Below are positions 2,992 to 58,664 of a stretch of DNA of 64,000 nt, in pieces (within the stretch, counting starts at the first letter, position 1; each line of letters begins with the position of its first letter). Position numbers and translations under genes: made by a program. Origin of the DNA: an uncultured Clostridium sp. (GTDB taxonomy: Bacteria > Bacillota > Clostridia > UBA1212 > UBA1255); the NCBI GenBank assembly GCA_900543695.1, contig UQSG01000004.1, positions 14,331 to 78,330 on the forward strand. The letters are read 5' to 3'. The notes under the pieces are model-generated. The model searched no databases. It was not told the origin of the DNA and worked only from the letters and a program-made list of their open reading frames with translations.

Positions 2992-4185
2992 TTATAGTAA
3001 TCGGTTCACGGTTTCAGCTACCAGGCCGTCTTTCAGAAAGATGCGCGGCACCCGCCGGCTCACGGCGCAGACCACCTCGTAATTGATCGTCCCCGCCAGC
3101 GCCGCAATTTCGTCTGCACTCGGCATTTTATCACAGTTTCCGCCGAAAAGCACGACCGAATCCCCCGGCTCCACCGGTCCGCATTGCCGCGCCTGCGTAA
3201 CGTCGGCCAGCATCTGATCCATGCAGACTCTGCCCACCACACGTGCCCGCACGCCCGTTTTTTCATGCAAGACAGAAGCGCGATTTCCCAAAACCCGAAA
3301 ATAGCCGTCCGCATATCCTGCCGGAATCGTCGCAATCACAGCAGGCTCGTGCGTACAATACGTCCTGCCATAGCTGAGGCTGCTGCCCGGCTCTACGCTT
3401 TTGACATGAGAAATTGCGGATTTCAGCGTCATGACAGGCCGGAGATCCGCACCGCAGGCCTTTAAATCCTCAGAAGGCCATAATCCATAAAGTATGATGC
3501 CGGCGCGCACCAGGTCCAGATGCATGTGCGGAAACCGGAGAATTGCCGCGCTGTTTGCCGCATGCCTGAGCGGTATATGTATATGACGTTCCCGCTCAAT
3601 TCTTTCACACGTTTCGCAAAACGTTCTGTATTGCCGCTCCGTATACCGGTCCGCGTCCTCCGAGGATTCGTCCGCCACCGCGAAATGGGTAAAAATACCT
3701 TCTATTTCAATTCCATCCAGCCTGGCGATCCGTTCTGCTTCTGCCGGAGCCTGTTCCGGGGAAAAGCCGATTCGGCCCATTCCCGTATCGATTTTGAGAT
3801 GAATCCTCGCCCTCTTGCCAAGCCTGCCTGCCGCTTCAGAAAGCCTGCGCGCCATATCGTAAGAAGATACTGCCTGCCGGACATCGCAGGCGACCACCGT
3901 TTCCGCGCATTCCGGCTCATTGTCGCTGAGGATCAGAATCGGAGCTTTTATGTCCTTCCTTCGGAGCTCTATCGCTTCCTCGAGCATCGCTACCGCCAGC
4001 CAGGATGCTCCGTGCGCCAAGGCTTCTCGCGCGACCTGCGGCGCGCCGTGTCCGTATGCATCCGCCTTTACGACGGCCATAATTTGCGCGGTCCTGTCCG
4101 TATGCCTGCGAATTTCCCGCAGATTATGCGCGATCGCGTCAAGATCAATCTCCGCCCAGGTTCTGTGCGTTCGGTCAGCCGCCAT
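2992..4185 (-). CDS. alr: alanine racemase
   Basis: 397 aa with the PLP-lysine motif AVVKADAYGHG and ...GRVCMDQ near the C-terminus. Confidence 0.95.
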   Translation of the reverse strand: MAADRTHRTWAEIDLDAIAHNLREIRRHTDRTAQIMAVVKADAYGHGAPQVAREALAHGASWLAVAMLEEAIELRRKDIKAPILILSDNEPECAETVVACDVRQAVSSYDMARRLSEAAGRLGKRARIHLKIDTGMGRIGFSPEQAPAEAERIARLDGIEIEGIFTHFAVADESSEDADRYTERQYRTFCETCERIERERHIHIPLRHAANSAAILRFPHMHLDLVRAGIILYGLWPSEDLKACGADLRPVMTLKSAISHVKSVEPGSSLSYGRTYCTHEPAVIATIPAGYADGYFRVLGNRASVLHEKTGVRARVVGRVCMDQMLADVTQARQCGPVEPGDSVVLFGGNCDKMPSADEIAALAGTINYEVVCAVSRRVPRIFLKDGLVAETVNRLL

Positions 4186-5110
4186 ATTGATGCACCTCTT
4201 TCAGCATTTCCGTCAGATCTCCCGCTTTTACAGCACGCTGCCCGTACCGCCTGGCTGCGAGATCCCCGCAGATTCCGTGGATATATACGCCGCACCGCAC
4301 CAGATCAAAGAAACGGCGATCAGAATCCGAGGGGCTTTCGCCGCAATCAGAGGCCAAAATTCCCGCCAGAATTCCCGCCAGAACGTCTCCGCTTCCGCCC
4401 GTCGCCATTCCCGGATTACCGCTGTCGTTAACTGCTAAGAGAACCTCCTTTGTCGGCAAAACATCGGCAATAACGGTTCCGCTGCCCTTCAGGACCGTGA
4501 CAGCTCCCGTCATTCCTGCAGTCTCAAGCGCCGCGCGTTTTCTGTCGCGGCCGATTTCATCCAGCGGAATCCCCGTCAGCCTCGACAGCTCCGCTGCATG
4601 GGGCGTCAGGACAAGGCGTCCGGCTCCAGCCGAACGTATCAGGCGTCCTGCCTGCCCGCGGTATGCGTTCAGGCCATCTGCATCAAGCACGATTGCGGCT
4701 CCGGAGCCATCCAGCTCCTCCATGAGCCCGTACACAAAGCGTTCCGTATCAGGCAGACGCCCAAGTCCGGGCCCGATCACCACGACACAGCGTCCGGGAG
4801 CAGCTTTTATAGCTTTGGCGATCCGGGAAGCATGACGCTCCCGAAAGCAAAAATCAGACCCGTCCCCTACCTTTATCTTCACGGCTTCCCTGCACGCCAT
4901 TTCATAAACCGGCAAAAGTCCGCCCGGTGCGAAAAGATAGACAAGACCTGCACCGGCGCGCAGCGCGCTTTCCGCGCAGAGCAAGGCGGCGCCCGTCATG
5001 CCCTCCGAGCCGGCGGCAATAAAAACACGGCCGTAATCCCCTTTATGCGTGAGCGGATCCCGCTGGGCATTATAATAAGCCAGCAGCTCACAATTTTTAT
5101 TTGTGTCCAT
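4175..5110 (-). CDS. nnrD: ADP-dependent NAD(P)H-hydrate dehydratase (stand-alone YjeF C-terminal domain)
   Basis: HKGDYGRVFIAAGSEGMTGAALL...GPGLG...TPH..E...GGSGDVLAG motifs. Start moved to ATG 5108-5110 (MDTNKN). Confidence 0.85.
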   Translation of the reverse strand: MDTNKNCELLAYYNAQRDPLTHKGDYGRVFIAAGSEGMTGAALLCAESALRAGAGLVYLFAPGGLLPVYEMACREAVKIKVGDGSDFCFRERHASRIAKAIKAAPGRCVVVIGPGLGRLPDTERFVYGLMEELDGSGAAIVLDADGLNAYRGQAGRLIRSAGAGRLVLTPHAAELSRLTGIPLDEIGRDRKRAALETAGMTGAVTVLKGSGTVIADVLPTKEVLLAVNDSGNPGMATGGSGDVLAGILAGILASDCGESPSDSDRRFFDLVRCGVYIHGICGDLAARRYGQRAVKAGDLTEMLKEVHQYGG

Positions 5111-11180: not shown

Positions 11181-11359
11181 TCGCAAATACACCTCCGTAA
11201 ATTTCCTGTTCTTTTCTACAAAAATATATAATATAAATTGTATATATCGACATTCTGAAGCTCATGCCAAGCATGCAGCCGCACTTCAAAATGATAATAC
11301 TCCTGACTCCCATTCGTAAGCTTTCGTCAAGCCGGATGAGAGCTCGTCCGGCCGCATCA

Positions 11360-11476
11360 TCAGCCTTGCTTTTGCTTATGCTTCGGATAAGCGTCGCAAA
11401 TAACCATAACCTTGCCTTTTCTTTTAATGATCTTGCACTTATCGCAGATCGGCTTCACTGACGGTCTTACTTTCAT
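11360..11476 (-). CDS. rpmJ: 50S ribosomal protein L36
   Basis: Not in the ORF track (<60 aa). Hand translation of the minus strand gives [38 protein letters not shown] between infA and rpsM. Confidence 0.9.
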
Positions 11477-11490
11477 GGCACAAACCTCCT

Positions 11491-11706
11491 TCACTTTCTC
11501 CAGACGATCCGGCCGCGATCCAGATCATAGGGAGACAACTCCAGGGTGACATGGTCCCCTTTCACGATTCTAATATAATTTGTTCTGAGCTTGCCTGATA
11601 TATGGGCAATCACCATATGTCCGTTTGCAAGCTCTACTTTAAAAATGCAGTTCGGCAGTACTTCAGCGATCACGCCTTCTACTTCGATTAAGTCTTCCTT
11701 CGACAA
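11491..11706 (-). CDS. infA: translation initiation factor IF-1
   Basis: 71 aa. [44 protein letters not shown]. Confidence 0.95.
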
Positions 11707-11718
11707 ACTATCATCCTC

Positions 11719-12480
11719 CTACATCGTTACGATCAGCGGATCGTCATCCGTCACAATTACCGTATTTTCGTAATGCGCCGAAAGCTTTCCGTCTTTCGTA
11801 TAGACGGTCCATTTGTTGGCGGCAAGAACGATATCCGCTCCGCCCTGGTTTACCATTGGCTCAATTGCGATCGCCATGCCCGCGGCAAGCCGATGTCCCC
11901 GTCTGTTTGTCCGGTAATTCGGGACTTCCGGATCCTCATGGAGCTCGCGCCCCACGCCGTGGCCCGTGTATTCCTTTACGATCGAATAACCAAAAGATTC
12001 GGCATAATCCTGTATCGCTCCGGATATGTCGGAGATCCGGTTGTTCGGCCGTACAAATTTCAGTCCTTCGAAAAAGCTTTGCCTTGTTACCTCGATCAGC
12101 TTCAATGCATCCTCGGAAACCCTTCCGACGGGAAAAGTCCGCGCCGCGTCTCCGTGAAACCCGTTGTAAAATGCGCCTACGTCAACGCTGATGATATCTC
12201 CCTCCCGCAGACGGCGGCCGTCCGGGATTCCATGAATCACCTCGCCGTTTAAAGAGGCGCAGATCGCACCGGGGAACTTGATCCCTCCGTAATAATTCGG
12301 CACTCCGAGAAAGGACGGAAAGGCACCATTCTTTATTATATAGTCTGAGGCGATTCTGTCAAGTTCTTTTGTCGTAATGCCGGGCGAAATATTTTCTTCG
12401 ATCTTCAGGAGAACCTCGGCAACAATTTTACCCGAGTCCTTCATCCTTTCAATTTCCGATTTCGATTTGATGTTGATCAT
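11719..12480 (-). CDS. map: type I methionine aminopeptidase
   Basis: 253 aa. ...ASLNGEVIHGIP...GDIISVDVGA...GHGVGRELHE...AIEPM. Confidence 0.95.
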   Translation of the reverse strand: MINIKSKSEIERMKDSGKIVAEVLLKIEENISPGITTKELDRIASDYIIKNGAFPSFLGVPNYYGGIKFPGAICASLNGEVIHGIPDGRRLREGDIISVDVGAFYNGFHGDAARTFPVGRVSEDALKLIEVTRQSFFEGLKFVRPNNRISDISGAIQDYAESFGYSIVKEYTGHGVGRELHEDPEVPNYRTNRRGHRLAAGMAIAIEPMVNQGGADIVLAANKWTVYTKDGKLSAHYENTVIVTDDDPLIVTM

Positions 12481-12484
12481 TCCA

Positions 12485-13135
12485 TCAGATTCCCTTCAAT
12501 CCAAGCGCATACAGGGTGTTCTGCAATGATTCCGGAATTGAATTTTCACTGCGGACATTCAAAAGCTTTCCCCTGTGCCGGTAAAAGTCTATAAGAGGCT
12601 CCGTCTTTTTATGATATGACGCGATCCTGTGTCTGATTACCTCCGGTCTGTCGTCTTCGCGTTCCACAAGCTGTGTCCCGCAGTTTCTGCATCGATTGTT
12701 TTCTGCCGGATTAAACTTCATATGATAAGTCTCATTACATGCCGGGCATACTTTTCTGTTCGACAGACGCTCTACAATGGTATCCTCATCCACTACGATG
12801 TTAATGATCCAGTCGATTTTTCTGCCGGACGCCCCGAGGATCCGCTCAAGCGCCTCGGCCTGCGGGATCGTTCGGGGAAATCCGTCCAGTATAAAGCCCT
12901 TTTGGCAATCAGGCTGTGCCAGACGAGCTTTTACGATCTGTGTCGTAATCTCATCCGGCACAAGCTCACCTTTCGATATATAGATGTCTGCCGTTTTGCC
13001 AAGCTCCGTGTTTTTTCTGATGTTATCTCTGAAGATTTCACCGGTGGAAATATGAGGAATTTTTAATATCTGAGACAGCTCCAGTGCCTGCGTACCCTTG
13101 CCTGCGCCAGGCGGTCCTAATAATATTAAGTTCAT
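12485..13135 (-). CDS. adk: adenylate kinase (zinc-lid type)
   Basis: MNLILLGPPGAGKGTQA... with lid CPACNETY...CRNCG. Start at ATG 13133-13135. Confidence 0.95.
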   Translation of the reverse strand: MNLILLGPPGAGKGTQALELSQILKIPHISTGEIFRDNIRKNTELGKTADIYISKGELVPDEITTQIVKARLAQPDCQKGFILDGFPRTIPQAEALERILGASGRKIDWIINIVVDEDTIVERLSNRKVCPACNETYHMKFNPAENNRCRNCGTQLVEREDDRPEVIRHRIASYHKKTEPLIDFYRHRGKLLNVRSENSIPESLQNTLYALGLKGI

Positions 13136-48968: not shown

Positions 48969-48997
48969 ATTATAATGCGCAGGCAGAATTCTGTCAA
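48969..48997 (-). promoter_or_regulatory. consensus sigma-A promoter of thrS
   Basis: Minus strand: TTGACA (48992-48997), 17-nt spacer, TATAAT (48969-48974). Confidence 0.7.
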
Positions 48998-49004
48998 TAG
49001 CAGC

Positions 49005-49065
49005 AGGTCATCCGCCAGAAAGTAAATTTAATGATTCCCGGGGTATTATGTTTATTACGCGCCAT
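49005..49065 (-). repeat. copy E (truncated) of the Sir2-gene 3'-end repeat
   Basis: Minus strand reads ATG GCG CGT AAT AAA CAT AAT ACC CCG GGA ATC ATT AAA TTT ACT TTC TGG CGG ATG ACC = MARNKHNTPGIIKFTFWRMT, homologous to copies A-D. Similarity is lost where the thrS promoter begins. Confidence 0.7.
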
Positions 49066-49160
49066 TTTTTGAATTTACTGCACATATTAGACTTGAAAAT
49101 ATGTCAAATATCCTTTCTTCTTTGTTATGCATCCTCGGTATTATGAAAGAATTGAATAAT

Positions 49161-49205
49161 AAAAAAACAGAAGTGGTCAGTCACACATAAGGGAGGCTGA
49201 CCACT
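49161..49205 (-). terminator. intrinsic terminator after the 408-aa ATPase gene
   Basis: Minus strand: AGTGGTCAG-(16 nt)-CTGACCACT followed by TCTGTTTTTTT. Confidence 0.65.
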
Positions 49206-49214
49206 TTCTATCAT

Positions 49215-50441
49215 CTATATAAGATTACAAGGAATAAAGCAGTTTTTCTGATCAATCGGTATTACTTCTTCGCACATGCAAACAATACCGCCGCTGCCAC
49301 GTTCTAAGGTTGTCTTGTCGAGTACCTCGTATTTTTTGATTTCTCTGCGATCAGGATTTGCAGATTTTTTGATTTCCAGCGGATGAACCAATCCGTTTTC
49401 TTCTACAATCACATCAATTTCTTTTGCGTTAGAATCACGGTAGTATGTCAGATTTGCTTTATCTGCTGAGTAAGAAAAACTTTTCAAAAGCTCAATCACA
49501 ACATAGTTTTCAAAATAGTGACCGTTTGCGGCGCCATTCATCAGGGTATCTCTGGTAAGCCACATGGACAGATAGGCGCACAGTCCGGTATCACAGAAAT
49601 ACAGTTTGGGTGTTTTTGTTAATCGCTTCAATTCATTATTGGCAAAGGGCAGCAGAAGATAGACAATGCCTAATCCCTGCAAGATACGCAGCCATTCTTT
49701 GGCTGTGGGCTGGGAAATGTCGGCTGACTCCGCCAAAGTTTTATAATTTACCTGCTCGGCTGTCAAGGCAGCACAGGCAGTAAGGAATTTTCGGAAACGT
49801 ACAGAATCGGTAATACTACCTTCCTCCGCCACATCCCGCATCAGGTAGGTTTCAATATAAGAATTGAAATATTCCTGCCTCTGCTCGGCATCGGCCCGCA
49901 AAGCGTCTGGCATCCCGCCGCGCCAGATATGCTCGAACACATCTACAATATCATTCTTTTTTGCCGTTTTCTGCCGCTCCAAAAGACACGGCAGAGAGAA
50001 ATCCAATTTGTTTGCAAAAACTTCTCCATCTACTTCATTTTTGGAAAAGCTGTACAGCTCCAGAATCCCAATCCTTCCGGCCAGCGTGTCGCGGATATTT
50101 TTCATCACCTTATACTGCTGGGAACCCGTCAGCCAGAACAATCCTCTTTCCTCGGTTTCATCACACATAATCTTAATCTGTTCAAACAGCTCCGGTGCTT
50201 TTTGTATCTCGTCAATGATGATAGGAGGCTTATAGGTTTGAAAAAATAAAACGGGATCCGCTTGGGCCAGGATTCTGGCCATTGTATTATCCATAGAAAT
50301 GTAAGTGCGGTTTTGTCCCTCAGCCAAATGTTTCAGCATGGTAGTTTTACCAACCTGCCGCGCACCTGTTACAAGCACCGCTTTGAAAAAGGAACTCATA
50401 CGCAAAAACTTTCGTTCCAATGCTCGCTCAATGTATCGCAT
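49215..50441 (-). CDS. AAA+ ATPase with DUF4143-type C-terminal domain (COG1373-like), cassette 4
   Basis: 408 aa. GARQVGKTT (Walker A), PIIIDEIQ (Walker B). The C-terminus EIDVIVE...PLEIKKS is a PD-(D/E)xK-like pattern. GGAGG lies 7 nt before the ATG. Confidence 0.85.
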   Translation of the reverse strand: MRYIERALERKFLRMSSFFKAVLVTGARQVGKTTMLKHLAEGQNRTYISMDNTMARILAQADPVLFFQTYKPPIIIDEIQKAPELFEQIKIMCDETEERGLFWLTGSQQYKVMKNIRDTLAGRIGILELYSFSKNEVDGEVFANKLDFSLPCLLERQKTAKKNDIVDVFEHIWRGGMPDALRADAEQRQEYFNSYIETYLMRDVAEEGSITDSVRFRKFLTACAALTAEQVNYKTLAESADISQPTAKEWLRILQGLGIVYLLLPFANNELKRLTKTPKLYFCDTGLCAYLSMWLTRDTLMNGAANGHYFENYVVIELLKSFSYSADKANLTYYRDSNAKEIDVIVEENGLVHPLEIKKSANPDRREIKKYEVLDKTTLERGSGGIVCMCEEVIPIDQKNCFIPCNLI

Positions 50442-50483
50442 TACATAACCTCCGTAATTTTAGGAAAATACAAAGTTTACTTT

Positions 50484-50512
50484 ATTTTATCCTAAAACCC
50501 TGTTGCTGTCAA
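50484..50512 (-). promoter_or_regulatory. putative promoter of cassette 4
   Basis: Minus strand: TTGACA (50507-50512), 17 nt, TAAAAT (50484-50489). Confidence 0.5.
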
Positions 50513-50710
50513 CTACAGCAAAGCACATTGAAATTGCGTTTTGCTCCTTGATGTAACCAATACAATATATGATTGGTTACATCCGCGTAATAGCTATACC
50601 TATTTTCAGGTTTCCCGTGCCGAAAAATATTTATTCAAAGCACAAAGGTTGCTTTCTCCTACTGTCAACAGCAGCTGGCACAAAATGCGCCTCGGCAGTG
50701 AACTGCCATT

Positions 50711-50922
50711 GAATCTGCTGCTTTTCATTTTAATTCTTTTAATACTTCGCCGATATCCCCATTAATACAGATTGACCGCTCCCCAATTTCCCTTGGCGCA
50801 TAGGCCTCCCCGTAATTCACACAGGCATACACAGCTCCCGGGTTCTGATACGTCATCCTCCAGAACGGATACTTGATGATGACGGGGGTATTATGTTCCT
50901 TGCGCACCCGAAATAAAGTCAT
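50711..50922 (-). repeat. copy D of the Sir2-gene 3'-end repeat (65-codon open remnant)
   Basis: ORF 50725-50922, MTLFRVRKEHNTPVIIKYPFWRMTYQNPGAVYACVNYGEAYAPREIGERSICINGDIGEVLKELK, aligns with the C-terminus of the 281-aa Sir2 protein. The post-stop motif is AAGCAGCAGATTCAATGG. Its ATG lies 2 nt after the upstream ATPase stop. Confidence 0.85.
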
Positions 50923-50924
50923 TT

Positions 50925-52385
50925 TTATAGTTTTCCGTTTTGTCCCTCTGCTTCTGCCTTTCCTAAGAGATAGAGGAAGGCGGTGGCTGGGACGCGCAGA
51001 ATGGGTACTTTTGTTTCGTGTTTGGTGGTGCCAAAATCATCAAGCCGTTTTGTGATTAAAAAGGCGTCTGTGACTTTGGATTTTTCGTCCTGGCATAGCT
51101 CGACAATAGCATCCGCCGCCGCGATATGGGAATTGTTGCGGTATTTCACTTCGCAGAGAATCTTCTGGCGGGGAAGCTCTACCACCACATCAACCTCTTT
51201 CTGATTGTCCTTTGCCTTTCTGAAATAGCCGAGGCTTGCCGTGCTACCCTGATAGAAGGAAACCATATGCTTGTAGACGGTGGTTTCCACCATTGCGCCC
51301 AGCTCCTTTTCGTCCGAAAGCACATCGTCAATCATCAGCACTGCATTGCGGATGGCCGCATCTGCAATAAAAATTTTCGGTTTTCCTTTTAGCGCGCCCT
51401 TGCTGCCCACATCCACCGGCTTTGCCAGATAAATGAGATTGGACATTTCCAGCGCCTTGATGTAGCTTTCAATGGTTGTGATAGAGGTATTCTCCAGTTC
51501 TTTCGCCGCCGTTGTTGCGTTAAAAATTTCCGTGGAGTTCATACACAGATAGAGAAACAGTTTTTCCATCAAAAACGGGCTTCGGATATTAAAGAGGGAC
51601 AGCACATCCCGCTTGATTACCTTATCCACCACATCCTCCCGCAGCATTCTCTGCGCGTAGGCGTCATCGTCCGATAGTACCAGCTCCGGGAAACCGCCGA
51701 TCATAAGATAACGGTTAAAATGATTTTGCAGCGGGGTGAACTGATCCATTAAATCGCCAAGCTGCGCCGGACTCATACTTTTAAGCTCGGATAAGCGTAA
51801 ATCATCCGGCAGGAGCGGCAAATCCAGATCAAGCAGCCTGCAATACTCATAAAAGGACATCGTCGGTATTTTCAGAACGCTCCACCGTCCTGTGCCGCTG
51901 TCTGCGGAACCCTTTTCCAAAACAGGGCTGGCGGATCCCGTGGCGATCAGCCGGATATCCTTCCGGCTGTCGTAGATTACCTTCATCCAGAGTTCCCAAT
52001 TATCGGTGTACTGCACTTCATCAAAGAAAACATACCTTGTGCCAGTGATAGGGTACATCGCTTCATAAATGGACAGCACATTCTCCGCGCTTTCGAGTTT
52101 CAGAATCGGATTATCAAAGGTAGCGTACAGGATATTTCTGGGATTTACGCCTTCGTCAATCAGGTGGTCGATGATCTGATACAGAATCGTCGTTTTGCCC
52201 ACGCGCCTCATGCCGGATAAAACGGCAAACCTTCGGATACTCTTATGGGTGAGCGTTTTCAAAGCCTCGTAATAGGCCAGTCTCTTCTGCGGCTTGCTTT
52301 CTTCCTTGATGGCAGAAGGTATGCGCCACCACGGGTTATATTGCCGCAATACTTTTATGACCTGTTCATCATTTACAATCGCCAT
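50925..52385 (-). CDS. AAA+ ATPase with DUF4143-type C-terminal domain, cassette 3
   Basis: 486 aa from ATG 52383-52385 (GGAGG 7 nt upstream). GMRRVGKTT, YVFFDEVQ. C-terminus EVDVVVE...LCEVKYR. Confidence 0.85.
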   Translation of the reverse strand: MAIVNDEQVIKVLRQYNPWWRIPSAIKEESKPQKRLAYYEALKTLTHKSIRRFAVLSGMRRVGKTTILYQIIDHLIDEGVNPRNILYATFDNPILKLESAENVLSIYEAMYPITGTRYVFFDEVQYTDNWELWMKVIYDSRKDIRLIATGSASPVLEKGSADSGTGRWSVLKIPTMSFYEYCRLLDLDLPLLPDDLRLSELKSMSPAQLGDLMDQFTPLQNHFNRYLMIGGFPELVLSDDDAYAQRMLREDVVDKVIKRDVLSLFNIRSPFLMEKLFLYLCMNSTEIFNATTAAKELENTSITTIESYIKALEMSNLIYLAKPVDVGSKGALKGKPKIFIADAAIRNAVLMIDDVLSDEKELGAMVETTVYKHMVSFYQGSTASLGYFRKAKDNQKEVDVVVELPRQKILCEVKYRNNSHIAAADAIVELCQDEKSKVTDAFLITKRLDDFGTTKHETKVPILRVPATAFLYLLGKAEAEGQNGKL

Positions 52386-52464
52386 AATACACCTCCATAA
52401 TACTATATTTCCAACGAGGTTTTGCAATTATACTATCGCTTTTATCTCGGAGTTTGTAAAGTAT

Positions 52465-52493
52465 ATTATATCAACAGCCAAAATGAATTGCAA
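52465..52493 (-). promoter_or_regulatory. putative promoter of cassette 3
   Basis: Minus strand: TTGCAA (52488-52493), 17 nt, TATAAT (52465-52470). Confidence 0.5.
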
Positions 52494-52644
52494 GCTATCT
52501 TTTAGAAACAGACGCATCCCTGTCATCATCTTCATTTTACCCTATCTTCATCATTATGCTCGGAAATGACAGAGATTAGCATGGTGTCGACGGAGATAAT
52601 ATTCCTATTTTTGTGTATTGATATATTTTTATCGGAACACCTTT

Positions 52645-52855
52645 GAATCTGCTGTTTTCATTTTAATTTTTTTATTACTTCGCCAATATCCTCATCAATG
52701 CAGATAGAACGATTCACAATTTCTCTTGGCGCATAGGCTTCCCCCAGGTTGACGCAGGCATAAACCGCCCGGAGATTCTCCGCTGTCATTCTCCAGAAGG
52801 AAAATTTCACTATGCCGGGAGTGTTATGTTTATTGCGCACCAAAAATGAAATCAT
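52645..52855 (-). repeat. copy C of the Sir2-gene 3'-end repeat (65-codon open remnant)
   Basis: ORF 52658-52855: MISFLVRNKHNTPGIVKFSFWRMTAENLRAVYACVNLGEAYAPREIVNRSICIDEDIGEVIKKLK. Positions 52694-52816 differ from 56261-56383 (copy A) at a single position by eye. Confidence 0.9.
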
Positions 52856-52900
52856 TCAGAACTTGTAAAGCAAGAATCGGCCTTATTTGCAGCCTTTTCC

Positions 52901-53899
52901 TTATAATGCGTTAATTTCCTTCTCCAGTTCTCCAACAGCTTCCATCATGGTTTCAAAAGATGGAATCTCCCCATAGAGCATATTCCGCATGGCAGAGTAA
53001 TCTTCCTGCAGCGCACCCAGGCGGTATGACGGAGGAAGCAGCTTTAAGGTGGCCGGAACAGCCTCCGGGTAGCGCGCCCAGGCCCGCGGATAAAACTTTA
53101 TCTTGAAATCGACCACTTTCTGCAGCAGGTCCAGCCGTTCAAACGCTTTTTCCTTCACAGGCGATTTCGCCATACAGTAAAGGTCATAATAATGACGGGA
53201 ATACCGCTGGGGCATGGAAAGGTGTTCAGGCCGGTTGGCCTCATGGTGAAGGATCGTCGCCTTTTCCCAGAAAGTCCGCTCCGGCGCCACCGTCAGAACA
53301 GGAACCTCTTTCTGCTTGAATAATTGCGGGTACTGTTCTGCGGCATACGGTACAATATCCACCAGCTCTGCCGGTGTCCAGGCTGCCAGCGCTCCAATCT
53401 CCAACCGAATCACCTGTAAGGTAGAGGCATCGGTAAATAGGTTTGGGTAAGCAAAGATCACCGTCTGTTTATCTTCCTCGTCTATGTAAAGATTGGCCGG
53501 AAGGCCCAATTCAGCAGAAAGCCCTTCCCGGACCTGCGGGCAGAAGGTTTCTGCCAGGAAAACCTCGGCCTTTCGGTTCGCCTCTTTATTGAAGGCATCC
53601 TGCTTGGTGTTTGAGCGTTTTTCCCAGGGTTCATTGACACCATACCCCAGGACACACCAATCCAGAATCAGATCAATGTCCTCGGAAAACCGGCCGATAA
53701 GGTGATACCCTTTGGATAAACTGGTCCCACCCTTAAATGTGACCGCCTTTTTCCACGGAGAGCGATGGAACAAGTAATCCAACGTCAGGCATACCCAAAA
53801 ATCCTTTTCCACAATGGCATCGTGAAGGCCGGTTTTTGCTGCGGTGTTATGAAACAGCTCCCGCCGGTCATCAGCCGGAAGTCTGGCAATCTCAATCAT
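52901..53899 (-). CDS. nucleotidyltransferase AbiEii/AbiGii-family toxin (DUF1814)
   Basis: 332 aa. ...EKDFWVCLTLDYLF......FKGGTSLSKGY..I.RFSEDIDL. Its start overlaps the upstream antitoxin-like gene (ATGATTGA). Confidence 0.85.
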   Translation of the reverse strand: MIEIARLPADDRRELFHNTAAKTGLHDAIVEKDFWVCLTLDYLFHRSPWKKAVTFKGGTSLSKGYHLIGRFSEDIDLILDWCVLGYGVNEPWEKRSNTKQDAFNKEANRKAEVFLAETFCPQVREGLSAELGLPANLYIDEEDKQTVIFAYPNLFTDASTLQVIRLEIGALAAWTPAELVDIVPYAAEQYPQLFKQKEVPVLTVAPERTFWEKATILHHEANRPEHLSMPQRYSRHYYDLYCMAKSPVKEKAFERLDLLQKVVDFKIKFYPRAWARYPEAVPATLKLLPPSYRLGALQEDYSAMRNMLYGEIPSFETMMEAVGELEKEINAL

Positions 53900-54512
53900 T
53901 TTCTCTTTCTCCTTTGCAGAGCTCTTTCATCACAGTGTAAATCCAATCCGTCGCTTCGGCCCCTTCTGCAAGGAGCGCCGCCTTTTCATCTTCATTCAGC
54001 CTGCGGGAAAGCACCCGTATGGTTTTTTCATCCACATGTTCTTTTCCCAGGGTCTTTAACGCCTGGATCACCAGGATCGTCATAGGCGACAGGCCCGTGA
54101 CCTCCTTGTTGGTCCGGTGCTTAAATTCAATCTTTGTCTTATCCCATTCATAGGTTTTATATGGCCCATCGCTGATATAGGACCATACTGCCGTTACCTG
54201 GGTTGACAGCCCCAGCATATTTAATGCGGTATCTCCACAGGGAGCGATAGTCCAATGATAGCATCTCGCCAGTGCTTTGGCAACCGCATCCGGGTCCGCC
54301 GCCACATATTCCCCAAGAAGCTTGCTGAATTTCGGCTTTTCAAAGACTCCTTTCAAAATACGCCTGAGTGTACCAGCCTGCACAAGCCGGTTCAGGTTTC
54401 TGCGTATGGTCTCGCTGTCCGCTACATCCGAAAAATCGGAAACAATAAAAATCGTACCGTCAGGAGCCGTACCAATGCGGTTTTGGATCTGTTTCGCATA
54501 ACTGTATGCCAT
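53892..54512 (-). CDS. AbiEi-like antitoxin / transcriptional regulator (DUF6088-like)
   Basis: About 206 aa from ATG 54510-54512 (8 nt after GGAGG). ...FSDVADSETIRRNLNRLVQAGTLRRILKGVF is wHTH-like. Genetically coupled to AbiEii. Confidence 0.7.
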   Translation of the reverse strand: MAYSYAKQIQNRIGTAPDGTIFIVSDFSDVADSETIRRNLNRLVQAGTLRRILKGVFEKPKFSKLLGEYVAADPDAVAKALARCYHWTIAPCGDTALNMLGLSTQVTAVWSYISDGPYKTYEWDKTKIEFKHRTNKEVTGLSPMTILVIQALKTLGKEHVDEKTIRVLSRRLNEDEKAALLAEGAEATDWIYTVMKELCKGEREND

Positions 54513-54536
54513 GCGCATCGCCTCCTTTGTCCCGTT

Positions 54537-54576
54537 TATTATATATTATTCGGGACAAAAAAGCAATGGACCTGTC
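54537..54576 (-). promoter_or_regulatory. AbiE cassette promoter with embedded 8-bp inverted repeat (candidate AbiEi operator)
   Basis: Minus strand: TTGCTT (54571-54576), 17 nt, TATAAT (54548-54553). The perfect inverted repeat TTGTCCCG (54561-54568) / CGGGACAA (54537-54544) brackets the -10 element. Confidence 0.55.
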
Positions 54577-54671
54577 CCTTTTCCTAAAGGGTCCCCAAGA
54601 AAAGACTTCTCCATACATCATACATCATGGCAAAACAAAGCGTGCTATTATGTCCCGGTAACGAATAGCCA

Positions 54672-54872
54672 ATGAATCTGCTGTTTTTTATTTTATTTTT
54701 TTAATACTTCGCCGATATCTCCGTCAATGCAGATTGAACGATTCGCAATTTCTCCCGGCGCATAAGCTTCCCCCAGGTTGACGCAGGCATAGATTGCTTT
54801 GGGATTTTCCGCCGTCATCTTCCAGAAAGAAAATTTCACTATACCCGGAGTGTTATGTTTATTGCACACCAC
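54672..54872 (-). repeat. copy B of the Sir2-gene 3'-end repeat (59-codon open remnant, no ATG)
   Basis: Hand translation of 54872->54693 gives VVCNKHNTPGIVKFSFWKMTAENPKAIYACVNLGEAYAPGEIANRSICIDGDIGEVLKK*. It begins 4 nt after the ATPase stop (54875-54877). Post-stop motif AAACAGCAGATTCATTGG. Confidence 0.85.
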
Positions 54873-54874
54873 TT

Positions 54875-56071
54875 TTATTCCTGCAATAGCCAGTCGGCAA
54901 TATCATAGATTTCAATCCCTTCATAGCTATATTTCGGATGCCGTGTCCGGGCAATGATCATTTTGGGATAAGCATCCCGAATTTGCAGTAACGGCTGGCT
55001 CTCCCTTTCAAGCGTTTTCGGATCTGAAATATTGTCACTGACCTGAATATAAATTTTTTCGTCTCCTTTTTGTGCTACAAAATCGATTTCCTTTTGATAC
55101 AACTTTCCCACGTATACATCATATTCCCTGCGGAGCAATTCGATACAAACCATGTTCTCATATACTCTGCCGTAATCCATATTTCTGCTCCCAAGAATCG
55201 CATACCGGATACCTGTATCACACAGATAAAATTTTTCAGAACTTTCCAAATATTTCTTTCCGCGAATATCATATCGCTTGATGTCGTAAAAGACAAAAGC
55301 GTTACACAAATACCTGATATATTTGCCCACAGTTACGTGATTGGTTATTGTTTTATTCGCTGTAAGGAGTTGGCTGACCTTATTCGGAGAAGTCAGATTG
55401 CTGATATTGTCCATAAGAAACTCGCTTAGTCGCCGTAATACCAATGTGTCCGGCAATGAATACTTCTGCACAAGATCTCTTGTAACGATCGTTTCATAGA
55501 CCTCCTTGATATAGCGGATTCTGTCTGCTTCTGTTTTATAAACGTAAGAGCCTGCCAATCCTCCTCTTATGGAATAAGCCTCAAACAAATTCTCTTTATC
55601 ATCAGTTTCATCATAATACCGACAGTATTCCCGAAAACTGAAAGGGAACACATGAATCTCAATATAACGTCCGGTAAATAGAGTTGCCAGATCCGCACTC
55701 AGCAAAAATGCGTTGGAGCCTGTAACATAAATATCATATTTCCGCTTCGAGTAAAGACTGTTGACCGCCAGCTCAAAACTCGGACACATTTGAACTTCAT
55801 CCACAAAAAGATAGTTTGTTTTTCCTGCTTGATAATGTTCTTCTACATACGCATGAAACGAATGATATTCTTTGAGATTTTCATAGGCCATATCCATAAA
55901 GTCAATAAAAATGATATTGATGTTTTCAAAATGACCTTTTAAATACTCGATGTATGCCCTCATCAATTCTGATTTTCCCGACCGGCGGATACCAGTAATA
56001 ATTTTAATGTCCGGAGTTTGATTTAGCTCGATGATCCTATTTAGATACTCCGTTCTCGTTATTATTTTCAT
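54875..56071 (-). CDS. AAA+ ATPase with DUF4143-type C-terminal domain (nuclease-like motif degenerate), cassette 1
   Basis: 398 aa from ATG 56069-56071 (GGAGG 5 nt upstream). GIRRSGKSE, YLFVDEVQ. The C-terminus EIDFVAQ...YIQVSD has Q/S where the paralogues have E/K. Confidence 0.85.
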   Translation of the reverse strand: MKIITRTEYLNRIIELNQTPDIKIITGIRRSGKSELMRAYIEYLKGHFENINIIFIDFMDMAYENLKEYHSFHAYVEEHYQAGKTNYLFVDEVQMCPSFELAVNSLYSKRKYDIYVTGSNAFLLSADLATLFTGRYIEIHVFPFSFREYCRYYDETDDKENLFEAYSIRGGLAGSYVYKTEADRIRYIKEVYETIVTRDLVQKYSLPDTLVLRRLSEFLMDNISNLTSPNKVSQLLTANKTITNHVTVGKYIRYLCNAFVFYDIKRYDIRGKKYLESSEKFYLCDTGIRYAILGSRNMDYGRVYENMVCIELLRREYDVYVGKLYQKEIDFVAQKGDEKIYIQVSDNISDPKTLERESQPLLQIRDAYPKMIIARTRHPKYSYEGIEIYDIADWLLQE

Positions 56072-56130
56072 ATGCGCCTCCGCTTTCAAAAAATGAATAT
56101 TTTTATTTTTTGAAACTACTCTTGGGATTT

Positions 56131-56159
56131 ATTATACGATCATCAGATAGTATATGCAA
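56131..56159 (-). promoter_or_regulatory. putative promoter of cassette 1
   Basis: Minus strand: TTGCAT (56154-56159), 17 nt, TATAAT (56131-56136). Confidence 0.5.
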
Positions 56160-56215
56160 GCAGCCGATTTCAAAACTGAAATTTTTTTATTTTTTTGAAA
56201 GCAGGCAAAAGCTAG

Positions 56216-56392
56216 ATATCTGCTGTTTTATACTTGTTTTAGCACCTCTCCAATATCCCCATCAATGCAGATAGAACGATTCACAATTTCTCTTGGCGCA
56301 TAGGCTTCCCCCAGGTTGACGCAGGCATAAACCGCCCGGGGATTCTCCGCTGTCATTCTCCAGAAGGAAAATTTCACTATGCCCGGGGTGTT
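56216..56392 (-). repeat. copy A of the repeat = authentic 3' end of the intact Sir2-family gene
   Basis: Codons ...NTPGIVKFSFWRMTAENPRAVYACVNLGEAYAPREIVNRSICIDGDIGEVLKQV* plus the post-stop AAACAGCAGATATC. Confidence 0.9.
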
Positions 56393-57073
56393 CATGCCTA
56401 CACCCAGCTCAAGATAAAGTACGGACATTCCTTCGTGGCGTCTGATAAAATCCGTATACCGGTCGGAGGCGCGGCGCCATCCGTCGTCCTCCACAAATTT
56501 ATCGTCGGAGCGGAGATTCATTGTCATTGGAGCGCTGCAGACCGGGCAGTACGGAATCAGCTCCGTCGGGATCCGCATTTCTTTTTGCCGTTTTACCATC
56601 AGGAGAATGGTTTCTCTGTTGTCATAGGTTTTCTGGCAGCAGGGCCTTGCGCACTGCCACAAACCGTAATCTCCCTGCGTATAGAAGAGACGCTTTTTGT
56701 CAAATCCGGCTTTTTGAAAGCAGTGGTCCACATTGGTGGTAAGGACAAAGTAATCCTTCTCTCTGACGAGCTCGTACAGCTCGGTGTAAACCGGCTTCGG
56801 CGCATCGCTGTAGCGATTGAGGAAAACATACCGGCTCCAGTATGCCCAGTATTCCTCCAGCGTCTTATATGGGTAAAAGCCGCCGGAATACATATCATGA
56901 AAACCGTATTTTTCTTCAAAATCCGCAAAATATTTCCGGAATCGTTCTCCGTCATATACAAACCCGGCCGAGGTGGAAAGCCCTGCCCCTGCGCCGATCA
57001 GGACGGCGTCTGTTTTGTCCAGAATTTCCCGAAGCTGCTCGGTTGTGCTCTTTGTGCGGATTCGTTTTGTCAT
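56228..57073 (-). CDS. Sir2-family protein, macrodomain-linked (SirTM-like) type
   Basis: 281 aa. GAGAGLSTSAG, TTNVDH, a Cys4 zinc module (CARPCC...CPVC), LELGVGMNTPG. Its start overlaps the macrodomain gene stop (ATGA). Confidence 0.85.
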   Translation of the reverse strand: MTKRIRTKSTTEQLREILDKTDAVLIGAGAGLSTSAGFVYDGERFRKYFADFEEKYGFHDMYSGGFYPYKTLEEYWAYWSRYVFLNRYSDAPKPVYTELYELVREKDYFVLTTNVDHCFQKAGFDKKRLFYTQGDYGLWQCARPCCQKTYDNRETILLMVKRQKEMRIPTELIPYCPVCSAPMTMNLRSDDKFVEDDGWRRASDRYTDFIRRHEGMSVLYLELGVGMNTPGIVKFSFWRMTAENPRAVYACVNLGEAYAPREIVNRSICIDGDIGEVLKQV

Positions 57074-57855
57074 TCTCTGTTCACTCCTAAAATTTTTTGG
57101 TAAATTTCCATATCAATCTGCTTATATACGTTGAATATGACGCAAATTCCGCTGGCGTCAGTATTCAGAAAGGAGTTTACCGTCTCCACGGCAATTTCAG
57201 CCGCCCGCTCGTTGGGGAAGCGAAACTCGCCCGTAGAAATACAGCAAAAGGCAATACTCTTACAGCCGTTTTCCGCAGCCAGCTGCAGGCAGGACCGATA
57301 GCAGGAGGCCAGCAGCTCGCAGTCCCGCTGCGTTACGGTTCCGGAAACGATCGGCCCTACGGTATGCAGAATATATTTGCAGGGCAAGTTGTATGCCGGC
57401 GTGATTTTGGCTTTCCCTGTCGGTTCCTCATGCCCCTGCTGCTTCATAAGCGCATCGCAGTAAAGCCTCAGCTGGATGCCGCTTTTCGTGTGAATCGCAT
57501 TGTCCACACAGCCGTGGCAGGGAAGAAAGCAGCCGAGCAGTTGACTGTTTGCGGCATTAACGACAGCATCGCAGCGCAGCGCGGTAATATCGCCCCGCCA
57601 AAGATAGATACCGTCCCGCACCGGTTTAAGCTCCGCAAGATCGGTGATGCCGGCGCTTCTGATCTCCTCCTGCAAATATGCATCCTGAATCTCTAAAAGC
57701 TTTCTGTCGGCAGGGCACGGCGGCCGTACGTTCAGCAGGGCGCGCAGCAGTTTTTGCTGCGCGTCCTCTTCCGAAGGAATTTCCAGACCGTCGGACTGCT
57801 TCCGCTCTTTGAGCAGCTCTCTAATCAAATAGAGTCTTCTTTCGGATTGTGTCAT
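57070..57855 (-). CDS. macrodomain protein (ADP-ribose / O-acetyl-ADP-ribose hydrolase-like)
   Basis: ...LWRGDITALRCDAVVNAANSQLLG......IHTKSG......ILHTVGP... is a MacroD-type core preceded by an ~100-aa N-terminal region. Start at ATG 57853-57855 after GGGAGG; the ORF-track N-terminus is over-extended. Confidence 0.85.
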   Translation of the reverse strand: MTQSERRLYLIRELLKERKQSDGLEIPSEEDAQQKLLRALLNVRPPCPADRKLLEIQDAYLQEEIRSAGITDLAELKPVRDGIYLWRGDITALRCDAVVNAANSQLLGCFLPCHGCVDNAIHTKSGIQLRLYCDALMKQQGHEEPTGKAKITPAYNLPCKYILHTVGPIVSGTVTQRDCELLASCYRSCLQLAAENGCKSIAFCCISTGEFRFPNERAAEIAVETVNSFLNTDASGICVIFNVYKQIDMEIYQKILGVNRE

Positions 57856-57872: not shown

Positions 57873-58664
57873 TCAGGAGAAGAAAAAGCCTGCCGTCATG
57901 TTCAGATAATTTTCTCCGCCGTACGCAGGATACCTCCGTTTTACTTCCTTCTTGAACGTCTCCGCATCCGCGCATGTTGCCGCGATCGTTTTCAGACTTT
58001 CAATATAGGATATTTTCGTCTCAGCGTCTTTCAAATCCTCCGGCGTATAATGCGAGGTCAGAATCAAATCGTAGCCTTTTGCAATATATTCCTTAAGCTG
58101 AGCAATTACGGAATCCGCATGACCGGCTCCGGCGATAATGGAATGGCAGTCATGACCAAGCATATGCGTATATACCGCATTGATCTCGGGAATTTCTACG
58201 TCGAAGGCCTCCGGTGTTTGCCGGATGTCGAAGGCGATTCCGCCGATCGTGATCCTGCCCTCCCCGATCACGTTCGTAATTTTATGCACAGAAGCGTCAA
58301 AGGCCTCTCCAAATGCACTTGTAAAATTCTGAATCAGAGTTTTTCCACCGCCGGACTCCGAATATTCTATGGCGTTCTGCGTGGCATACTTTGGGATTTC
58401 CGGCAGAAAGGCCCCGCCGGCGCCATGGTAAGCCACCAGCATCCCCTCGATCTTCAGATTTTTCAGATAATCCGCAAGCTCTCCGATATTGTCAAAAAAG
58501 CAAGGCGACTCAATGAGAACGGCTTTTCCATCCTTCTCCACCGCAAATACCTCGTCGCTGATCAAGTCGTTTGTTTTATAGGCATGCAGCTTGATGCCTC
58601 CGAAATCGTAAACATTCATTTCCCCTTTTGCAAGCTTCACTGTTGTAAATGCGTTTTTATTCAT
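57873..58664 (-). CDS. MBL-fold-like protein (HxHxDH motif not evident)
   Basis: 263 aa. ...KAVLIESP......HMLGHDCHS...LILTSHY resembles the metallo-beta-lactamase fold order, but the canonical first motif is absent. First gene of the macro-Sir2 transcription unit. Confidence 0.4.
   Translation of the reverse strand: MNKNAFTTVKLAKGEMNVYDFGGIKLHAYKTNDLISDEVFAVEKDGKAVLIESPCFFDNIGELADYLKNLKIEGMLVAYHGAGGAFLPEIPKYATQNAIEYSESGGGKTLIQNFTSAFGEAFDASVHKITNVIGEGRITIGGIAFDIRQTPEAFDVEIPEINAVYTHMLGHDCHSIIAGAGHADSVIAQLKEYIAKGYDLILTSHYTPEDLKDAETKISYIESLKTIAATCADAETFKKEVKRRYPAYGGENYLNMTAGFFFS

Follow-up and report, generated by a model that had tools for sequence, protein, structure and literature searches.

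We analysed a 64-kb stretch of DNA (hereafter, the window; 64,000 nucleotides of contig UQSG01000004.1, from an uncultured Clostridium sp.), in which four small gene cassettes lie between a macrodomain-linked Sir2-family gene and thrS, each followed by a further copy of the 3' end of that Sir2 gene. Our comparisons make it probable that these four cassettes arose by tandem accretion of non-autonomous units at the attB site of a family of large serine recombinases (LSRs) that targets Sir2, each unit bringing its own replacement 3' end for the gene. The anatomy of the array, the site specificity of its junctions, their association with LSR genes, the horizontal spread of the cassettes, and their reshuffling by homologous recombination are established by the data presented below. 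Coordinates refer to the whole window, all array features lie on the minus strand (Table 1), and the ATPase genes of cassettes 1, 3, and 4 are called ATPase1, ATPase2, and ATPase3.

The recurrence of the Sir2 3' end four more times in direct order, which the initial annotation had proposed, was recovered by a repeat search and by the MAFFT alignment used to delimit the repeats, with 72-85% identity of the copies to reference copy C over 199 nt. One cassette lies between consecutive copies, and annotation with Pfam and PADLOC returned the contents originally described. The PDC-S01 matches of the ATPases of cassettes 1, 3, and 4 in PADLOC (E = 8e-151, 1e-63, and 5e-104) mark them as candidate defence genes by annotation, and the AbiEi and AbiEii genes of cassette 2, which overlap by 8 nt, have the gene content of an AbiE type IV toxin-antitoxin system; such annotations suggest a cargo that would defend against phage. 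The lower GC content of the cassettes was likewise borne out by computation, the array region being AT-richer than its surroundings. Of the claim that every cassette has its own promoter, a part stood: good -35/-10 matches were found 5' of three of the four cassettes, and the number of promoter-like sites in the array region shows no excess over shuffled sequence.

Copies B, C, and D keep an open frame down to a stop at the homologous position, and the differences between copies are mainly synonymous (ratio of nonsynonymous to synonymous substitution rates, dN/dS, of 0.05-0.17), a pattern that chance resemblance does not produce; each copy must at one time have formed the functional terminus of a Sir2 gene. 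Decayed tandem Sir2 duplications with unrelated genes between them would also be expected to leave direct repeats, but this origin has practically nothing left in its favour: none of the fragments has Sir2 5' sequence ahead of it, every one of them starts at one shared codon after the foreign 16-mer, related genomes differ in the number, order, and content of cassettes instead of sharing one fixed arrangement, and dS values of up to >1 among the copies mean that they come from different Sir2 lineages.

The repeat unit proved to be longer than the Sir2 3' end to which it had first been assigned, since a conserved non-Sir2 16-mer, GGTGCGCAATAAACAT, precedes each of copies B-E; read in frame, it gives 'VRNKH' where Sir2 has 'GVGM'. 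This motif, which we call the P arm, occurs four times in the window at <=3 mismatches, versus 0.07 occurrences expected, and the P arms of the window cassettes show 0-2 mismatches in 18 nt. A search of metagenome contigs with a pattern made of the 16-mer plus five bases yielded 124 matches in 119 loci. At least 95 of the 124 continue in frame with N-T-P..(I/V).K..FW of very diverse Sir2 3' ends, and the remaining ones are mostly frameshifted or truncated Sir2 ends, with about nine chance matches. The junctions sit at the Sir2 N-T-P codons in dozens of species. A junction-motif scan of viral contigs gave 0 matches and no sign of phages carrying the site.

At six loci (L106, L131, L135, L171, L194, and L197), the P arm was found with AACACCCC only, followed by non-Sir2 DNA. 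These junctions may represent secondary (pseudo-attB) insertion sites or later deletions, and they suggest that the P half-site extends through AACACCCC.

The second constant element of the repeats is the stretch of ~15 nt after the stop of each copy, AACAGCAGATTC. Its recurrence had been noted correctly, but it is carried by the elements and is not native Sir2 flank. The intact Sir2 gene has 594 relatives in Clostridia genomes. Among the Sir2 loci of the 80 best-matching species-representative genomes, the motif was present only where a cassette follows, whereas ~65 'empty' Sir2 loci have unrelated sequence downstream and no post-stop motif. In the window, its core AAAACAGCAGATTCA lies at approximate positions 56215-56227, 54680-54692, 52645-52657, and 50712-50724. 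LSR-less cassettes from many genera have kept the same core at their left end; it could be the start of a terminator, an accessory site for the recombinase, or a vestige of shared descent.

The identity of the enzyme family came from the metagenomic junctions. In 48 of the 124, the gene ending ~30 nt upstream of the 16-mer encodes an LSR with the Pfam domains Resolvase, Recombinase, Zn_ribbon_recom, and DUF4368, distantly related to CcrB and XisF (109 bits with the CcrB model, versus a cut-off of 900). In loci L005, L006, L165, and L190, the Sir2 gene is broken at ..AAYACNCCG and followed by an inverted 16-mer (P'). Both ends of the element are present on one contig in L165 and L190, in the order broken Sir2, P', an element body of 4.5-5.8 kb, LSR gene, direct motif P, and displaced Sir2 end; judged by its sequence, this arrangement has the inverted P/P' arms of a canonical attL/attR pair. 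A reversed insertion, which we also considered for the inverted motif of L005 and L006, accounts for it less well than does the P' arm of a canonical element. The cargo of these elements includes a STAND NTPase in L165 and, in L195, a TnpV homologue detected with Pfam; an ORF of L005 also resembles TnpV, as judged by eye. In L155, the remnant of an LSR-less cassette, together with a second P arm, has an LSR element immediately upstream of it.

Because the 16-mer adjoins the Sir2 N-T-P codons, has LSR genes upstream, and recurs inverted at the other end of the element, it is best read as the putative att half-site of this LSR family and NTPG as the attB of the family, with a crossover that falls in the Thr-Pro codons (ACN CCN). 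The corresponding attB-like site of the window coincides with a sharp identity boundary and would be the docking site for the next insertion. The description of the array as recombinase-less therefore stands for the window and fails for the system, whose LSR-bearing siblings occupy the same Sir2 site. Within the window, Pfam scans of the cassette genes and of 20 other large ORFs, all of the latter housekeeping genes, revealed no recombinase and no intI (the ribosomal protein, pur-gene, P-type ATPase, and GH127 ORFs were left unscanned), and a tblastn search with LSR reached a best E of 0.8, with no detectable LSR remnant. By the same Pfam scan and tblastn search, integration and transfer genes are absent from the four cassettes.

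Near the inner side of their left end, some of the complete LSR elements contain an entire second Sir2 gene (L005, 9153-10837; also L006, L165, and L195). In these cases, the host Sir2 linked to the macro-domain gene is cut short at N-T-P, and ~100 nt further on comes the full spare copy. The 3' end of the spare gene in L005, TIVKFSFWRM.., resembles window ends A-C (IVKFSFWRM), native ends being mostly IIKYPFWQM, which hints that the cassette-borne Sir2 ends may descend from element-borne Sir2 genes. Homologous fusion of a truncated host Sir2 with an element-borne full Sir2 was rejected as the general route to a replacement end, as the boundary is fixed at NTPG and not scattered upstream; such a fusion is possible as the origin of the cassette family.

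The cassettes have spread among Clostridia. Extra Sir2 3' fragments were found downstream of Sir2 in eight of the 80 species-representative genomes, all of them beginning at N-T-P-G, with AAA_14/DUF4143 ATPases, AbiEi/Eii, or AlbA_2/HATPase_c_4 proteins as cargo. Further loci show a cassette directly behind Sir2, and arrays of 2-5 cassettes are present in many loci. The nucleotide identity of the ATPase1 cassette to its counterpart in Ca. Scatomonas (L002) is 96.5-100%, compared with ~75% for Sir2, and the AbiE cassette is 89% identical in nucleotides to a cassette lying directly behind Sir2 in L021 and L078. ATPase3 showed 89% identity to remnants in L064 and 99-100% amino acid identity in L106 and L142. 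For the Sir2 gene of the window, identity to other genera rises from 50-80% to 97-100% exactly at codon N228; in comparisons across genera, the rise is from 50-75% to 90-100% within ~15 nt of NTPG.

Locus L012, from a GC-rich metagenome-assembled genome, presents what by its sequence is a first insertion caught in the act. Its native Sir2 (60% GC) runs up to GGCGGA and is followed by a replacement end of 48% GC, 94.6% identical to window copy C, and by the post-stop motif; after these stand the terminal ~50 nt of the ATPase2 gene, which is otherwise deleted, and the 16-mer; and last, behind the P arm, the complete native Sir2 3' end, with 65% GC. This order, together with the identity jumps, means that the incoming DNA brings a new gene end and that the native end is displaced. 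The last 54 codons of the Sir2 gene of the window (copy A) are, likewise, element-derived replacement sequence.

Two modified forms of the ATPase1 cassette were also observed. In L002, it is interrupted (11309-12546) by an insertion of two ORFs on the opposite strand that looks, by eye, like an IS3-family element. In L136 and L123 (~3660-5110), the cassette (92% nucleotide identity) is followed by a P arm and a truncated Sir2 end with no Sir2 gene upstream, its place being taken by a divergently oriented gene of 644 aa; either the 5' part of Sir2 was deleted or the cassette block was relocated.

The LSR-less cassettes account for ~58 of the metagenomic junctions (18 with AlbA_2, 16 with AbiEii, and 24 with DUF4143 ATPases). 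Each type has its own constant junction between cargo and P arm, behind which different Sir2 ends were found, up to 12 for AlbA_2, 9 for AbiEii, and 6 for one of the ATPases, so that these units have moved repeatedly without a recombinase of their own. This bears on a different history, in which each cassette arrived as an autonomous LSR element, lost its LSR gene in place, and was never mobile in LSR-less form. Decayed elements do exist, such as the N-terminally truncated LSR of L190 and the broken cassettes of L155 and L064, and loss of this kind is a decay route proposed in the model of cis-mobilizable elements (CIMEs; PMC5704250). Nevertheless, identical LSR-less units, in which 4-40 nt separate the cargo stop from the P arm, stand before 3-12 different Sir2 ends and in different genera, whereas independent deletions would not produce such identical junctions, and tblastn detected no LSR remnant in the window; we consider decay in situ an unlikely origin of the array.

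In the mechanism that we propose, an LSR family of the TnpX/Ccr type would insert at its attB site, the Sir2 codons N-T-P(-G) (56392 in the window). Insertion would truncate Sir2, and the element would therefore supply a 54-codon replacement 3' end or a whole second Sir2 gene, leaving Sir2 intact and the previous 3' end pushed downstream, where it would now be preceded by the right-hand att half-site (P arm, GGTGCGCAATAAACAT + AACACCCC). As the replacement end would recreate an attB-like site, the next element could enter at the same place, beside Sir2, and an array would form. Four such rounds would have brought, from the oldest to the newest, ATPase3, ATPase2, AbiEi/Eii, and ATPase1, with the window cassettes travelling as passengers and the LSR supplied from elsewhere.

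The route that we favour is accretion followed by cis-mobilisation: a complete element would integrate at the recreated attB-like site, its excision using a distal att site would take the neighbouring cassettes along, and, in the new host, the complete element would excise alone and leave the cassettes behind. These steps would produce a seamless junction of Sir2 and replacement end at NTPG, LSR-less cassettes that end in a P arm, and a native end at the far side, a pattern that is present in L012 and in the window. Alternatively, the LSR might act directly on P-arm junctions, which is conceivable because the recombinase of Tn4451 integrates and excises without a directionality factor, as reviewed in PMC5704250. 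As a secondary process, RecA-type recombination between the ~165-nt repeats deletes, duplicates, and swaps cassettes. The comparative data agree with one of the two models offered in the initial annotation, that of successive insertion of units carrying replacement 3' ends and mobilised in trans, of which the in trans part is what we infer.

Several observations weigh against this account. No LSR was found in the window by tblastn, nor within 10 kb in the 20 loci of the window species. The window cassettes have a P arm on the right and no inverted P' on the left, where the end is Sir2-like and attB-like (B'-type); without a P' arm, canonical attP x attB or attL x attR recombination cannot move a single cassette, and mobilisation would need piggy-backing on an LSR element or relaxed use of sites, which we take to be a property of TnpX. 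No circular cassette contigs were found by terminal overlaps among the 119 metagenomic loci, and the attL/attR pairs are ambiguous as to the central dinucleotide of the crossover. Finally, some boundaries fall inside the repeat and away from the LSR site. The 5-cassette form (L086) carries a second block, running from the end of A through ATPase1 and the P arm to the start of B, inside copy C, and both crossovers of this extra copy lie in the repeat, at +62..+151 and +135..+148; similarly, the ATPase1 block common to the window and L002 has its left boundary at ~+130, inside the repeat. Crossovers within the repeat mean that at least the recent events in the window species were homologous and not site-specific.

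Contigs of this species from human-gut metagenomes, a set of 20 loci obtained in two look-ups that had several contigs in common, carry 3, 4, or 5 cassettes. Cassette 1 (ATPase1) is absent from some strains, including the 3-cassette form (L094), which shows a mosaic repeat; cassette 1 is the newest and cassette 4, the distal one, is the oldest. Sir2 directly abutting thrS, the empty site, was seen in none of the 20 loci. The second of the initial models, according to which RecA stacked the downstream-of-Sir2 genes of different lineages by means of the conserved Sir2 3' end, draws on the extra ATPase1 copy of L086 with both crossovers inside the repeat, on the mosaic repeat of L094, and on the start of the block shared with L002. 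As the sole mechanism, it is largely refuted and, in our estimate, very unlikely: it leaves unexplained the conserved 16-mer at every junction, identical with the end of the LSR elements, and the element-borne post-stop motif, and the boundary stays fixed at NTPG even where the ends are too divergent for homologous recombination, as in L012. What the repeats of L086 and L094 do argue for is homologous recombination as a real, secondary process of reshuffling behind the accretion of LSR-dependent units.

An integron offers another comparison. The ordered cassettes, the conserved repeat between them, and a cargo of defence and toxin-antitoxin genes might recall an array in which the ~200-nt repeats serve a tyrosine integron integrase as folded attC sites. 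We regard this as hardly credible, in line with the initial exclusion of a classical integron: folding of the repeats on both strands gave no excess single-strand structure (z = -0.71 and +0.15), the scanned window ORFs include no intI, the enzyme of the sibling elements is a serine recombinase, and three of the four cassettes have promoter-like sites upstream. Sedentary chromosomal integrons are said to carry defence and toxin-antitoxin cassettes, and a functional analogy does hold in the ordered small cassettes at one chromosomal site, the entry of new ones at the proximal end, and the type of cargo; here, however, there is neither a tyrosine IntI nor a folded attC, the repeat is a gene end and not a dedicated site, and three of the four cassettes bring promoter-like sites of their own. 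A more tentative idea, to which we give a minority chance, is that gut Clostridia possess a serine-recombinase-based functional equivalent of the integron, in which a TnpX-like LSR would act in trans on minimal LSR-less cassettes circulating between genera, with a fixed site in the macro-linked Sir2 gene as docking site, through non-canonical recombination between P arm and Sir2 end. Each such cassette would consist of a replacement Sir2 end and post-stop motif on the left, one defence gene, often a promoter-like site, and a P arm on the right.

The initial annotation could match the array to no described system, and this did not hold: it is the clostridial counterpart of composite islands of the staphylococcal cassette chromosome (SCC) and SCC-like type and of CIME accretion, and not a categorically new system. 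In staphylococci, tandem SCC and SCC-like cassettes at rlmH (orfX) are moved by CcrAB or CcrC and are enriched in defence genes (PMC11470126), and the Enterococcus cassette chromosome is a related cassette system (PMC6222049). The systems share LSRs that insert at one site in a conserved housekeeping-type gene, tandem accumulation behind that gene, recombinase-less cassettes that lie between att sites (here putative ones) and are, or in our case would be, mobilised by the recombinase of an adjacent element, and a cargo rich in anti-phage defence genes, here candidate ones. In contrast to SCC, the target here is a macro-linked Sir2 and not rlmH, the hosts are gut Clostridia, the LSR matches the CcrB model only distantly, the insertion lies 54 codons before the stop and leaves a ~165-nt coding repeat where SCC has a direct repeat of 15-20 nt, the cassettes measure 1.3-2 kb with one or two genes, and the LSR-less ones have no recognisable left (P') half-site. 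In the strict sense, which calls for ccrAB or ccrC and the rlmH target, the array is thus not an SCC. As to SCC-like composite islands, the window cassettes contain no LSR and can be non-autonomous members at best, while siblings at the same site contain one (the 48 junctions above); tandem accretion beside an LSR-bearing element was found in the arrays of 2-5 cassettes and in L155.

CIMEs are recombinase-less elements found in tandems with integrative and conjugative or integrative and mobilizable elements, where they take part in accretion and cis-mobilisation, as with ICESt1 and ICESt3 at fda in Streptococcus thermophilus (PMC5704250). The cassettes resemble them in being recombinase-less, located at a gene 3' end, and delimited by putative att repeats, and they would likewise be stacked by repeated site-specific integration and be co-mobilisable with an autonomous neighbour. 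CIMEs, however, are defined for tyrosine integrases and have both attL and attR, whereas a serine recombinase is involved here, all four cassettes have attR-type junctions (P arm/Sir2 end) and none an attL-type (B/P') junction, and the Sir2-proximal junction is attB-like.

Regarding the complete elements, they resemble clostridial LSR elements such as the mobilisable transposons Tn4451/Tn4453, with which they share the domain architecture of the LSR (TnpX), including DUF4368, a domain typical of TnpX-like enzymes, as well as TnpV in L195 and a small size (4.5-5.8 kb). Tn4451 targets loosely defined sites and carries resistance genes, whereas the Sir2 elements are specific for one codon triplet and compensate the interrupted gene. 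Finally, in the C-terminal displacement of rhs and cdiA genes, variable toxin domains are displaced as 'orphan' toxin tips together with immunity genes. There, as here, incoming DNA takes the place of a gene 3' end, and earlier ends persist downstream as fragments in order, but what is displaced in the Sir2 array is conserved, what varies is a separate gene, and each junction bears the site of a site-specific recombinase. A literature search returned nothing specific on Sir2 as an LSR target, on DUF4143 as a defence gene, or on arrays of this kind.

Table 1. Features of the Sir2-thrS cassette array, in order of transcription (window coordinates).
Feature	Coordinates	Strand	Evidence
Macro-domain protein-ADP-ribose hydrolase gene, operon partner upstream of Sir2	57070..57855	-	Pfam Macro E = 7e-42; NCBIfam PRK04143 equivalog, 359 bits (cut-off 272)
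Intact Sir2-family gene, 281 aa	56228..57073	-	ORF; weak Pfam SIR2 match
attB-like site: native B arm ..GGTGTAGGCATG joined to start of replacement end A, AACACCCCGGGCAT..	56370..56415	-	Break position of type-1 LSR insertions in L005, L006, L165, L190
Copy A (NTPG..stop) of Sir2 3' end	56392-56228 (56215..56392 with post-stop motif AACAGCAGAT)	-	Repeat search, alignment
Cassette 1: AAA_14/DUF4143 ATPase, 398 aa, PADLOC PDC-S01	54875..56071	-	Pfam, PADLOC
P arm 1, GGTGTGCAATAAACAT, right end of cassette 1	54855..54870	-	Alignment, motif scan
Copy B, displaced Sir2 3' end	54693..54854	-	Repeat search, alignment, dN/dS
Cassette 2, gene 1: AbiEi antitoxin-like (DUF6088)	53892..54512	-	PADLOC AbiEi E = 5e-65; Pfam DUF6088
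Cassette 2, gene 2: AbiEii nucleotidyltransferase toxin	52901..53899	-	PADLOC AbiEii E = 3e-107; Pfam AbiEii
P arm 2, GGTGCGCAATAAACAT	52826..52841	-	Motif scan
Copy C, displaced Sir2 3' end, travels with cassette 3	52658..52825	-	Repeat search, alignment
Cassette 3: AAA_14/DUF4143 ATPase, 486 aa, PADLOC PDC-S01	50925..52385	-	Pfam, PADLOC
P arm 3, GGTGCGCAAGGAACAT	50893..50908	-	Motif scan
Copy D, displaced Sir2 3' end	50725..50892	-	Repeat search, alignment, dN/dS
Cassette 4: AAA_14/DUF4143 ATPase, 408 aa, PADLOC PDC-S01	49215..50441	-	Pfam, PADLOC
P arm 4, GGCGCGTAATAAACAT	49048..49063	-	Motif scan
Remnant E, 42 nt, first 14 codons NTPGIIKFTFWRMT of oldest displaced Sir2 end	49006..49047	-	Repeat search, alignment
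thrS promoter TTGACA-17-TATAAT, distal limit of array	48969..48997	-	Promoter search

In addition to the array itself, some observations concern its borders and its cargo. Remnant E abuts the perfect promoter of thrS, an essential promoter up to which the oldest displaced Sir2 end has been deleted. The thrS leader contains a strong stem-loop with a T tract (48733-48701), which could belong to a leader of the T-box type. On the other side, the macro-Sir2 pair is immediately preceded by an ORF of 263 aa (57873-58664, minus strand), which matched nothing in Pfam or NCBIfam and is kept beside the pair in all examined strains of the window species. Regarding the cargo, the AbiEii gene is split into ORFs of 138 and 202 aa in L082, L085, L090, and L098, and into ORFs of 36 and 293 aa in L084; the toxin appears to have been inactivated repeatedly in these strains while the antitoxin-like gene stayed intact.

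The 16-nt motif followed by N-T-P codons provides a handle to search for further cassettes and recombinases, and LSRs with a well-defined natural attB may be of use as genome-engineering tools. The recurring cargo belongs to three families, AAA_14/DUF4143, AlbA_2/HATPase_c_4, and AbiE, two of them without demonstrated function, which makes the arrays a source of defence candidates. The elements also use a compensation trick, as they insert inside a gene and yet keep it working by means of a 54-codon spare end or a whole spare gene. In conclusion, the Sir2 site is a widespread hotspot, not described before, for the insertion of candidate anti-phage genes in Clostridia of the human gut, and it extends the SCC principle, by which tandem recombinase-less defence cassettes ride on an LSR, beyond staphylococci and enterococci.

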